Positions 50,127-53,265 of a stretch of DNA of 64,000 bases are shown in pieces (positions within the stretch are counted from its first letter, which is position 1; each line of letters opens with the position of its first letter). The notes under the pieces were generated by a model that saw only the letters and a program-made list of their open reading frames with translations, was not told where the DNA came from and ran no database searches. This DNA comes from Longimicrobiales bacterium (GTDB taxonomy: Bacteria > Gemmatimonadota > Gemmatimonadetes > Longimicrobiales > Gaopeijiaceae): NCBI GenBank assembly GCA_965238005.1, contig OZ250165.1, positions 1,568,001-1,632,000 on the forward strand. Reading direction: 5' to 3'. The position numbers were made by a program, and so were the translations under genes.

Positions 50127-50457
50127 GGCGCAAGCAGAACCCGGCCTGCAATGACGTTCTGAGCGTCTTCGGGATTTATTCGGTATCCTGGGTAGGCTGG
50201 AGCGTTCTCGTGGCTTAGGGGGCCGTTATCGGCTTGCTCGCCCCAGAGGAGGTTCATGCAACAATATTCTACAAGCTAGGTGATCCTGGGCAGAACACCG
50301 TCGATATGGAGGCTGACTTGCTGCCGACCTCTGTCGCCTGGCATACTCGGACGTAAGCGACCGTACCTCAACGGTGAAGCACGCGAGGTCGTAAAGCGTT
50401 CTTTCAGCCGTTCGGGATGTCGGCTGACTCGGTTCTCTGAATGGAGGGGCATCGATC

Positions 50458-50748
50458 ATGTTCGTCGTGCAAGACACTTTCAAGACCAAGCCCGGAAAGG
50501 CCAACGCGCTCGTAGAGGTGTTTACCGCAGCGGCTCCACACCTCGCTGCCGATGGAGTCCACGCGCATCGAGTACTCGTCGATCACGTCGCGGACTACTG
50601 GACTGTGATCTTCGAGTCCACAGTCGAGGATCTCGACACGTACTTCGCGTTCACAGAGAACCAAGCAGCGCGCGAGGCCATGGCGGGGTATATGGACCTT
50701 GTCGTGAGCGGTAGTCGTCGCATCTACCGGATAGCGTACGAGGGTTGA
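50458..50748 (+). CDS. Small NIPSNAP/dimeric alpha-beta barrel-like protein
   Basis: GGAGG RBS, F..KPGKA..., YMDLVVSGSRRIY. Confidence 0.7.
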   Translation: MFVVQDTFKTKPGKANALVEVFTAAAPHLAADGVHAHRVLVDHVADYWTVIFESTVEDLDTYFAFTENQAAREAMAGYMDLVVSGSRRIYRIAYEG

Positions 50749-50854
50749 GTCTCGCAGTGCTTGGACGTTCTGCCTAACACAACTTGAAAGCACGCCCCCT
50801 GTGGGTACCGTGGAGTTGCGAAACAACCATGGACCACAGCAGAGGGCGGCTCTC

Positions 50855-52459
50855 ATGAAGCGGAACACCAAGTATGTGGGGCTCGACGTGCACCAGGCAA
50901 TGACGGTGGCGACGGTTCGGAGCGAAGGGGGGCGTGTGATCGCGCGCAGCGTGGTGGAGACGAGCGACGAATCGATAAGGGAGTTCTTCAGCGCGATGGC
51001 TGGGTCGGTGCACGTGGTGTTCGAGGAGGGAACACAGGCGCAGTGGCTCTACGACCTACTGAGTCCTCGTGTAGACCGGGTGATCGTGTGCGACCGCAGA
51101 GGCGAGAAGCGATCGGGCAACAAGGGGGACCAGGTCAATGCCGACGAACTGTCGGAGCAGTTGCGGTGCGGCAGCCTGCGAGCGGTATACCACGGCGCAC
51201 ACGGCCGGGCCGATCTCAAGGAGCTGACTCGAGCCTATCGCAACCTCGTCGAGGACGGCACGCGCGTGATGCTGCGGCTCAAGGCACTCTTCCGTGCGCG
51301 GGCCATCCGAACCACGGGCGGCGGTGTCTACCAGCCGAAGGGGCGCGCCGCCTGGGTCGCACAGCTACCCGAGCACGGTGCTCGGCTACGTGCCGAGACC
51401 CTGTACGCTCAGCTCGATGTGCTTCGGACTCAGCGCAAGAAGACCAAGGCGGCCATGGTCGCTGAAGCGAAGCGCGATCCGGCCTTTGGGGTGCTCGAGA
51501 CGATCCCCTACTGCGGGCCCGTGCGTATCGCGCTGTTGTTGGCAACCATTGGTACGCCTTGGCGCTTCCGCACGAAGCGCAACCTGTGGGCCTATGCCGG
51601 ACTCGCCGTGGTCACCCGCTCGAGCGCCGACTACGAGTTGTTTGATGGGCGCCCTCGTCGTCGTCGTCGCCCGCCGCTCACGCGAGGGTTGAACCCCAAC
51701 CACAATCGCGTACTCAAGAATGTCTTTAAGGGCGCCGCCAACGTAGCCATCGGACGTCGGGGCCCTCTACAAGATTTCTAACTCGCCGTGGTCACCCGCT
51801 CGAGCGCCGACTACGAGTTGTTTGATGGGCGCCCTCGTCGTCGTCGTCGCCCGCCGCTCACGCGAGGGTTGAACCCCAACCACAATCGCGTACTCAAGAA
51901 TGTCTTTAAGGGCGCCGCCAACGTAGCCATCGGACGTCGGGGCCCTCTACAAGATTTCTAACTCGCCGTGGTCACCCGCTCGAGCGCCGACTACGAGTTG
52001 TTTGATGGGCGCCCTCGTCGTCGTCGTCGCCCGCCGCTCACGCGAGGGTTGAACCCCAACCACAATCGCGTACTCAAGAATGTCTTTAAGGGCGCCGCCA
52101 ACGTAGCCATCGGACGTCGGGGCCCTCTACAAGATTTCTAACTCGCCGTGGTCACCCGCTCGAGCGCCGACTACGAGTTGTTTGATGGGCGCCCTCGTCG
52201 TCGTCGTCGCCCGCCGCTCACGCGAGGGTTGAACCCCAACCACAATCGCGTACTCAAGAATGTCTTTAAGGGCGCCGCCAACGTAGCCATCGGACGTCGG
52301 GGCCCTCTACAAGATTTCTATCACCGAATGATCGAGCGCGGGATGCGCGAGGAGCTCGCCCGTGTGACGCTGGCGCGTAAGCTCGCCGCGCTCACCCTTC
52401 GTCTACTCAAAACCGGAGAAGTCTTTGATCCGACCCAGCTGAGTCGACCCCAAATATAG
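50855..52459 (+). pseudogene. IS110-family transposase/recombinase interrupted by a tandem duplication
   Basis: YVGLDVH, VVFEE, KGDQVNA (RuvC-like), YAGLAVVTRSS, LARKL; TAA at repeat junctions; one repeat copy gives a 354-aa ORF. Confidence 0.9.
51601..52320 (+). repeat. Perfect 4 x 180-bp tandem repeat
   Basis: Units 51601-51780, 51781-51960, 51961-52140 and 52141-52320 are identical. Confidence 0.98.
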
Positions 52460-52886
52460 AGGGGGTTCGTCGTCCCGGAGCGTAGGGTGCAGCGTATGAC
52501 CCTCGATCCCTTGGAACGTCGAATCCCCGGACGACGGTGCGGGAGGCAGTCTCAACGCGAGACGTACGCCCGGCTCGCAGTCATGCCGAGGCACGAGTCT
52601 AACTCCAGGCCCTTCCGCAGAACCCGAAGAAGTGTCAGGCCGGCCCGAGGCTGAGTCTCAGATAGAACCATGGTTCGCGTCGTACGACCCAGGTCCACTC
52701 AATCAAGTCCGGACGGATCGATCATCCAAGCGAGGATCATCATGGCCCACACGAAGACTGACTCATCCAGCACACCGCTCTCTGACGATCCGGCTAATCC
52801 AACCAAGGGGCTGAGTGCCAAGCCCAACACGGCTTCGCATCCAGCCGGGGCGGAGCCCGCTCTTGACACTCTCTTTCATAGAACTT
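52460..52886 (+). ncRNA. Candidate IS110 bridge/seek RNA region
   Basis: ~430-nt non-coding end with hairpins and short matches to the inferred target and donor junctions. Confidence 0.5.
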
Positions 52887-52959
52887 CTCGCGATTCTGCT
52901 GCACGACAAGAATGCCGACCGCAAGCGAAATGCGCGACCCTGGGCCGCGCGCACCGACC

Positions 52960-53265
52960 TCATTCCGCGGAGCCTTCGGACGCCGCGAAGAGACGCCACT
53001 CGCCGGGGATCCCCTTCAGTGCATGAGCTCCGCGGTCGACGAATCCAAGGCCGGAACCGGCAACGAGGTCCTTGACGGTCCTGGAGACGAGAACCTCGTT
53101 GGCCTCCGCACAGCCCGCGACGCGGGCTCCAAGGTGTACCGCGATTCCCAACACCTTGTCACCCACCACCTCGCATTCGCCGGTGTGCAGGCCCGCCCGA
53201 ATCGCGATCCCCAGGTCAGCGACTGCGTCACGGATCGCACACGCACAGCGGATCCCCCGGGCCGG
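52960..53265 (-). pseudogene. Class III adenylate/guanylate cyclase C-terminal fragment
   Basis: PARGIRCA..IRAGLHTGECE..GIAVHLGARV..EVLVSRTVKDLVAGSG..LKGIPGEWRLF. Confidence 0.85.

Follow-up and report, generated by a model that had tools for sequence, protein, structure and literature searches.

The 3' end of an insertion sequence in the genome of a Longimicrobiales bacterium (assembly GCA_965238005.1) very probably encodes a guide RNA of the bridge/seek type known from IS110/IS1111 elements. The DNA analysed, called the window below, is a stretch of 64,000 nucleotides (nt) of contig OZ250165.1 (positions 1,568,001 to 1,632,000, forward strand), and positions are counted from its first letter. 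The element at 50779-52884 is classified by its sequence as an IS110-family insertion sequence with an IS1111-like layout, the assignment to IS1111 being made by layout and guide order. Its segment 52529-52710 is in all likelihood the guide RNA itself, with two loops, one for the target and one for the joined element ends. A preliminary description of the window, made from the letters without database searches, had proposed a guide RNA with a target loop followed by a donor loop in this 3' end, and both the fold and the covariation with flanks support this. The description had also spoken of a new programmable recombinase/RNA pair; what stands of this is the IS110/IS1111 guide RNA, since RNAs of this kind had already been described and the recombinase gene of the window copy is disrupted.

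The guides can be read only against the element ends, which were placed by comparison of copies and related loci:
50779-52884, forward strand: IS110-family insertion sequence (homology boundaries from genome copies and 78 related loci; Pfam domains)
50779-50854, forward strand: left end, a 76-nt leader, the first 5 nt of which, ACAAC, are the clade-specific right donor half (end comparison)
50785-50790, forward strand: subterminal inverted repeat TGAAAG, with its partner CTTTCA at 52873-52878
52863-52884, forward strand: right-end tip (end comparison across copies and loci)
52863-52868, forward strand: TTGACA, candidate -35 box of a junction promoter, within the right-end tip
52873-52878, forward strand: CTTTCA, subterminal repeat, within the right-end tip
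52877-52884, forward strand: left donor half CATAGA-AC, within the right-end tip

BLAST of 50600-53100 against the bacterium's own 4.84-Mb genome gave four further pieces of the element (a rearranged second copy, two 5' fragments and one 3' fragment), as well as weaker matches to the right flank. In the aligned pieces the left junction reads ..CTAAC followed by ACAACTTGAAAG.., the right junction reads ..CTTTCATAGAAC followed by GTCTCGCG.., and three unoccupied paralogous sites in the same genome read ..CTAAC followed by GTCTC... A scan restricted to one genome per species returned 78 related loci, mostly from metagenome-assembled genomes of Longimicrobiales and other Gemmatimonadota, with protein identities of 63-97%. 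The right end is ..TCATAGAAC in all 78 loci, the left flank mostly ends in CTAAC, and the left end consists of a clade-specific pentamer (ACAAC, GCATG, GCATA, GGATA or GGATG) followed by TTGA(A/G)AGC. The general pattern is thus a left flank ..CTAAC, the element from ACAACTTGAAAG to CATAGAAC, and the right flank. AC (possibly AAC) is common to the target and to both ends and is therefore taken as the core, in agreement with the preliminary description; insertion occurs at this shared dinucleotide (CTA-AC, then the element ending in ..CATAGA-AC, then GTCTC), with no longer target duplication.

The ends given in the preliminary description had to be moved. It had let the element begin at an AACTT shared by both ends, with ACAAC as extra flanking bases; the true start is 50779, 5 nt to the left, and ACAAC is part of the element. 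That AACTT occurs at both ends is fortuitous and rests on a T at 52885 private to the flank of the window copy, as the second copy, the 3' fragment and the three unoccupied sites all have AAC followed by G, contrary to the predicted empty target AAC-TTCTCG. The predicted circle junction CATAGAAC-TTGAAAG also fails, since at least two natural metagenome contigs of about unit length have the ends abutted, with CATAGAAC followed directly by the first left-end base. They were found by a junction pattern scan of metagenomes that returned at least 117 stretches, of which 80 were inspected, 78 being chance matches and 2 real junctions; the abutted ends are what would be expected of a circular or tandem form. 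The subterminal repeats covary, TGAAAG/CTTTCA in the window being matched by TGAGAGC/GCTCTCA in other clades; they are 6 bp long in the window and 7-8 bp in relatives, the IS1111 criterion being 7-17 bp. The non-coding DNA downstream of the transposase gene measures 425 nt (52460-52884), versus 76 nt at the left end (50779-50854).

Folding of the 3' region, which the preliminary description had recommended, yielded a two-loop consensus fold with compensatory changes. RNAalifold was applied to 38 non-identical relatives (alignment A1, covering 52524-52745) and gave the following features:
52529-52710, forward strand: bridge/seek RNA core, predicted (RNAalifold and pair counts on the 38 relatives; block conservation)
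52529-52532 with 52707-52710, forward strand: closing stem, enclosing the target domain, the donor domain and a small hairpin (RNAalifold)
52539-52545 with 52612-52618 and 52549-52552 with 52607-52610, forward strand: outer stems of module 1 (RNAalifold)
52568-52574 with 52585-52592, forward strand: inner hairpin of module 1, above the internal loop (RNAalifold)
52620-52624 with 52672-52676, forward strand: outer stem of module 2 (RNAalifold)
52637-52644 with 52650-52658, forward strand: inner hairpin of module 2, above the internal loop (RNAalifold)
52679-52688, forward strand: putative small GC hairpin GTCGTACGAC (read from the sequence, outside the scored pairs)

Over the 35 consensus pairs in the 38 relatives, 99.0% of the cells are standard pairs, and both sides have changed in 13 pairs. 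None of 500 column shuffles reached any of the five measures used, and when the partners were slid by 1-3 columns pairing fell to 31-45%. The window sequence folded alone forms the same main stems. Relatives with 63-73% protein identity retain 77-84% DNA identity in the block equivalent to 52526-52690. The small GC hairpin has a hairpin-like GC-rich equivalent in relatives; the preliminary description had it separate the two donor guides, but it follows the donor domain and precedes the closing stem's 3' strand.

The first internal loop (5' strand 52553-52567, 3' strand 52593-52606) carries the two predicted target guides:
52557-52565, forward strand: right target guide GCGAGACGT, the reverse complement of AC plus GTCTCGC; hypervariable, tracking the right flanks of relatives
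52595-52603, forward strand: left target guide GAGTCTAAC, left flank plus core copy; includes GTCTAAC and tracks the left flanks of relatives

The 5' strand of this loop directly follows a conserved GGCAGTCTC and is hypervariable, with GT at its end; its reverse complement is AC plus the element's own right flank. The match was assessed on the 38 elements for which both flanks were available, the flanks being permuted among elements in 5000 shuffles. The right guide agreed with its own flank at 7.87 of 11 positions on average, the shuffled mean being 5.49 (standard deviation 0.20), and the left guide at 4.95 of 7 positions, the shuffled mean being 3.68 (standard deviation 0.12); for neither guide did any shuffle reach the observed value, and the outcome was unchanged with the 34 unique guide pairs. 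The comparison shows that both predicted target guides covary with each element's own flanks. Of 40 elements, 19 reach a right-guide match of at least 9/11; another, whose flank is short, reaches 8/8. In the intact relative L004, the guide GCAGAGACGT, when reverse-complemented, gives exactly the core AC followed by the flank GTCTCTGC. The window guide GCGAGACGT is exact for the flank GTCTCGC of the second copy in the same genome, and its own flank TTCTCGC fits except at the first position. Left guides of relatives that follow their flanks include ..CTCCGAAC, ..GCGCAAC, ..GCTTGAC, ..GTTTCAC and ..ATCAAAC. A pairing of GCGAGACGT as a mere stem partner of GTCTC, found in the minimum-free-energy fold of the window sequence alone, was rejected, the segment being hypervariable and unpaired in the consensus fold. 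In the order of the guides, the segment pairing with the top strand (52557-52565) lies 5' of the one pairing with the bottom strand (52595-52603), which is the order described for IS1111-family seekRNAs and the reverse of that of the IS110 type (PMC11187229).

The second internal loop carries the candidate donor guides:
52662-52668, forward strand: left donor guide ATAGAAC, in all 38 relatives the same as the invariant right end CATAGAAC
52625-52635, forward strand: presumed right donor guide CGAAGAAGTGT, 5' strand of the donor loop, a partial match to the left end

ATAGAAC lies in the 3' strand of this loop (52659-52671, CAGATAGAACCAT). Since both it and the right end are invariant, no covariation between them is seen inside the family. 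The 5' strand (CGAAGAAG(T/C)GT) is near-constant across relatives with very different targets and ends in GT in 31-32 of the 38. The AC/GT core stands at the end of three guides in every relative and of the fourth in 31-32 of the 38; in IS621 the core is described as taking part in each of the four pairings (PMC11208160). Opposite the first left-end base, all 38 relatives have a complementary base (7 T-A and 31 C-G pairs), a pattern that reflects a single clade split. CGAAGAAGTGT is complementary to AC plus ACAACTTGA at 7 of 11 positions, with two internal mismatches, and is probably the right donor guide, pairing discontinuously with the core and the left end; the right donor pairing of IS621 is likewise discontinuous (PMC11208160).

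The same genome harbors a single-copy IS110-family element (C1:4813435-4815016) with a 40% identical protein, an open frame of 364 amino acids and a similar 3' RNA region. Its loop strand reads ATAGAAG and its end ..CATAGAAG, at the corresponding distance from TTGAC; this is one supporting change, with putative ends, and suggests that the core of this element is AG. Its left flank TCAATAG resembles the loop strand TCACTAG.

All five strings on which the preliminary description relied are present (GTCTAAC at 52597-52603, AGAAGT at 52628-52633, ATAGAAC at 52662-52668, TCAAGT at 52703-52708 and GTCGTACGAC at 52679-52688), and their assignments had different fates in the homologues. GTCTAAC as the left target guide covaries with the left flanks of relatives, and ATAGAAC as the left donor guide equals the right end throughout. 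AGAAGT, chosen as a target guide because the guide order of IS621 was assumed, sits in the donor loop, in its near-constant 5' strand, GCGAGACGT being the true right target guide. TCAAGT, the supposed right donor guide, shares bases with the closing stem and is without equivalent in other clades: ATTCGT, ACACGT, etc. stand at the aligned position where the left ends would need TCAACA or TCAATA. With uniform base frequencies any one 6-mer should occur by chance about 0.1 times in 427 nt, and several 6-mers can be chosen per half-site, so 6-nt matches alone carry no weight. Both false guides stem from the 5-nt error in the element end, and the lesson for annotation is that short guide-like matches should not be trusted until the ends have been fixed from other copies.

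In the mechanism that we propose, the RNA would fold as two stem/internal-loop/stem modules inside one outer stem. Module 1 would bind the insertion site through GCGAGACGT (core and right flank) and GAGTCTAAC (left flank and core). Module 2 would bind the joined element ends, with ATAGAAC pairing with the right end and the core and, less surely, CGAAGAAGTGT pairing discontinuously with the core and the left end. We infer both this RNA-DNA pairing and binding of the RNA by the recombinase; strand exchange by the DEDD/Ser recombinase would follow at the AC core, giving insertion without duplication beyond AC.

A narrower role is unlikely: the RNA could guide the choice of target only, as a seekRNA in the strict sense, while the protein reads the ends through the subterminal repeats and the flanking target halves, loop 2 being structural or protein-binding. 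The invariance of the right end and of ATAGAAC, which leaves no covariation within the family, would agree with this, as would the poor fit of the presumed right donor guide and the mutual covariation of the subterminal repeats, which a protein or DNA-structure site would also show; moreover, only target matches, plus a need for target-like flanks around the donor, are reported by Siddiquee et al. (PMC11187229). However, module 2 repeats the architecture of module 1, and its 7-nt identity to the right end stops exactly on the core; loop and end both read ..AGAAG in the 40%-identical element; every relative has a complementary base facing the first left-end base; and donor loops have been shown experimentally in IS621 (PMC11208160). 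It is very improbable that the conserved 3' block is a feature of messenger RNA or DNA unrelated to guiding, such as a leader or attenuator for the reading frame at 52742 or a binding site, with flank matches arising from shared repeats. Flank shuffling retains the background similarity that comes from many targets lying in one repeat family (hence the raised shuffled mean of 5.49/11), and still 0 of 5000 shuffles reached the observed match; strongly differing guides fit their own unrelated flanks (L044, L046, L060 and L066), and the variable bases fall exactly in the loop strands of the covarying fold. What such a reading has in its favor, besides that background, is that the block is located 31 nt upstream of a conserved Shine-Dalgarno sequence and ATG.

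Several results weigh against a guide RNA that reads both the target and the joined ends of this element. On the side of pairing, the right donor guide is weak (7/11), the second left-end base is mismatched in 11 of 38 relatives, and the covariation at the first amounts to one clade split; the right-flank match is 5/11 or less in 6 of 40 elements, and the window copy's own target departs from the guides at one right and three left positions. The single-sequence fold is not more stable than shuffles (energy z = -0.77), and a scan of 50500-53200 with the Rfam 15 covariance models gave no matches at E<=1. As to the protein, its score of 119.8 bits to the NCBIfam profile NF033542 is below the curated cut-off of 140, and phmmer links the transposase to no solved structure, IS621 included. 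A promoter and terminator scan of 50700-53000 found no promoter-like (sigma-70-like) site, and the two terminator-like sites that it found are not above shuffle expectation. Finally, six metatranscriptome runs contain about a quarter of the sampled words, and contigs from four runs (four studies) cover 52322-52940 piecewise, with variant guide bases at 52556-52558 and 52597-52598; one contig of 532 nt ends at the right end, and no joints, start or end pile-ups, or loose end running into the left end were seen among the contigs of the four runs. These contigs may derive from DNA, show no RNA ends and prove no transcription.

The protein-coding part of the element contains the following features:
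50855-51781, forward strand: transposase ORF (open reading frame; MKRNTKYVGLDVH..), residues 1-308 of 354 matched, ending at the TAA of the first repeat joint
51601-52320, forward strand: perfect tandem repeat of 4 x 180 bp in the transposase gene (100% matches, score 1440), with TAA at each joint
52148-52459, forward strand: remaining C-terminal transposase frame to the natural stop, residues 250-354

ORF 50801-51781 matches the Pfam domains DEDD_Tnp_IS110 (PF01548, E=6e-10) and Transposase_20 (PF02371, E=1e-10), as does the protein of the intact relative L004 (E=9e-11 and 1.8e-11, respectively), and NF033542 ('IS110 family RNA-guided transposase') is aligned over profile positions 1-342 of 343. 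The conserved Ser motif at 51598-51630 is AGLAVVTRSSADY, the same as in P0030, with V for P and A for G of the C-terminal IS110 motif G(L)-x-P/x-x4-S-G/A (PMC11187229). The phmmer comparison of the intact relative's transposase with PDB chains, in which no profile search was made, gave no match at E<=0.001. Among 72,556 plasmids, no IS110-family gene reaches 30% identity to the transposase, and the best matches are named only 'IS110 family transposase'.

The transposase stops at residue 308 of 354, as the repeat joint creates a TAA, and the three extra repeat units account for the length of the window element, 2106 bp versus 1566 bp in intact relatives. The tandem repeat begins where the conserved Ser motif is encoded, and could be either a genuine recent amplification or an artefact of assembly. 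The guide RNA sequence of the window copy is predicted to be intact and its recombinase gene truncated. The other element pieces in the genome are also broken, and there is no intact copy; with a truncated recombinase and no intact copy to help, the element would be stranded in this genome and incapable of moving by itself, unless the tandem repeat is an assembly error. The second copy (C1:3445704-3447215) has a transposase gene with a 107-bp internal duplication and a 172-bp deletion, and its guide RNA region is about 97% identical; its right flank is a perfect match to the right target guide. One Longimicrobiales chromosome (L005, L011 and L012) carries at least 14 near-identical 1566-bp copies, several of them a few kb apart, and because of these copies the element family appears to be active in that genome.

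The insertion site consists of two target halves:
50770-50778, forward strand: left target half (CTGCCTAAC), the last two bases of which, AC, are the core (flanks of other copies and unoccupied sites end in CTAAC)
52885-52960, forward strand: right target half, in a low-copy REP-like (repetitive extragenic palindromic) repeat (10 BLAST matches in the genome, including this site)

The left half agrees with the left target guide at 6 of 9 positions, and the target consensus is ..(G/C)(T/C)CTA-AC followed by GTCTC(G/T)(C/G)CG... The left flank 50250-50778 gave no match outside its own genome in 40 relatives, from genus to order, that is, no orthologous empty site; for this reason, paralogous sites and other copies served to define the target. 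The element is inserted between the 3' ends of convergent genes, an ABM-domain gene and, on the other strand, a large alpha/beta-hydrolase gene. The target repeat is an imperfect palindrome of about 60-75 nt (..TCTAAC GTCTCGCGATTCTGCTGCGCG..CAAGATGCCGACCGCAAGCGAAGCGCGCGAG..), intergenic, and occurs at about nine other places in the genome.

Guide RNAs have been predicted in the right end of 93% of the IS1111 elements in ISfinder (Durrant et al., 2024, PMC11208160), and seekRNAs have been shown experimentally for four IS1111 members, ISEc11, ISPa11, ISKpn4 and ISPst6 (Siddiquee et al., 2024, PMC11187229). The class has thus been known since 2024, and the window element is a new member of it. 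With the IS1111 seekRNA elements it shares a long non-coding region downstream of a DEDD transposase gene, subterminal inverted repeats (6 bp here versus the 7-17 bp quoted for IS1111), a segment complementary to the top strand 5' of that complementary to the bottom strand, both overlapping at the insertion point, a repeated palindromic sequence as a target, and a TTGACA in the right end placed so as to make a junction promoter. It differs from them in its transposase, which is so distant from the plasmid-borne IS110-family genes and below the NCBIfam cut-off, in its AC core and in a conserved ORF that begins in the right end; moreover, both of its loops are simple internal loops, whereas in many IS1111 RNAs the donor bases are said to sit in a multiloop. 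Like the IS621 bridge RNA (Durrant et al., 2024; Hiraizumi et al., 2024), the RNA has two internal loops, target-binding and then, probably, donor-binding; in each loop one strand has the sense of the left half plus core and the other is antisense to the core plus right half, the core dinucleotide would take part in all pairings, and the right donor pairing would be discontinuous. Unlike in IS621, the RNA lies in the right end rather than in the left end, the target-loop strands come in the opposite order, with the right guide 5' and the left guide 3', the core is AC and not CT, and the protein has no similarity to the solved IS621 structures detectable by phmmer. ISPpu9 and ISPpu10 of Pseudomonas putida also belong to the IS110 family, use REP sequences as insertion sites, produce minicircles closed at a shared dinucleotide and possess a gene for an RNA downstream of that for the transposase (PMC12288879); they differ in belonging to another lineage and in having an AG core and the regulatory RNAs Asr9/Ssr9, and ISPpu9 is reported to lack a junction promoter (PMC12288879).

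The family adds to these systems a deep-branching lineage from marine and soil Gemmatimonadota and a cleanly defined two-loop RNA with an AC core. Recombinases with bridge or seek RNAs are under development as programmable tools for DNA insertion without double-strand breaks. The relatives form a natural 'reprogramming series' of at least 34 guide pairs, most of which fit their own insertion sites, and the series indicates which positions can be changed, namely about seven non-core bases on the right and about five on the left.

A conserved ORF runs across the element ends:
52742-52884, forward strand: right-end part of the conserved ORF (Shine-Dalgarno sequence GAGGA at 52732-52736, ATG at 52742; no stop inside the element)

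In the integrated window copy this frame continues to 53026. GAGGA and the ATG lie 31 nt after the closing stem of the guide RNA. In 37 of 41 non-identical relatives a start codon preceded by a Shine-Dalgarno-like motif was detected at the equivalent position or only a few codons away, and the motif test detected none in the other four. The starts are 128, 134, 137, 140, 143, 146 or 149 nt from the right end, all equal to 2 modulo 3, and leaders at the left end measure 76 or 79 nt; each of the 41 keeps the frame open as far as the right end, over the modelled junction of right and left ends and along the leader, in phase with the ATG of the transposase. Stops lie directly upstream of the right-end start in eight relatives. 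The ORF is unbroken in the natural junction contigs (at least two, L127 and L128), and the database proteins P0001 and P0002 have the same start and extension, continuing into the transposase. The extension across the junction comprises about 73 residues. Against such a junction ORF count the GC content at third codon positions of the extension, which shows no excess (0.64 vs 0.82 in the transposase), and its poor conservation outside blocks that also serve as signals in RNA or DNA. In the other two frames, the stops stem from conserved motifs and so are not independent evidence, the phase match with the transposase alone is a one-in-three event, and a junction promoter would start transcription downstream of the ATG at 52742. 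A word-based protein search with the 74-residue extension of L127 gave 69 candidates, none of them significant. In the literature searched, no account turned up of an IS110/IS1111 reading frame that crosses the circle junction, and older IS1111 work may bear on the point.

The chances are about even that the recombination site lies inside the transposase frame, a transposase longer by about 73 residues being made only from joined ends, in a circle or a tandem. If so, the long form would report that excision has happened, and this would be a new way of tying transposase production to the excised state. In the circle the order is guide RNA, start codon and transposase, as in IS621, which suggests that the IS110-type layout is distinguished from the IS1111-type layout only by the point at which the circle opens.

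Other signals were noted at the right end. In the junction contigs (at least two), TTGACA and CATATT, separated by 17 nt, lie across the junction, and the clade of the window has a poor -10-like CAACTT. Within 52808-52878, a conserved GGGGCTGA(G/T)TGCC can pair either with GCA(T/A)(C/T)CAGC about 25 nt downstream or with GACA(C/A)TC overlapping the TTGACA box. These alternatives (approximately 52811-52820 with approximately 52840-52849 or with approximately 52866-52875) each show some compensatory changes, and two alternative folds near the right end are possible.

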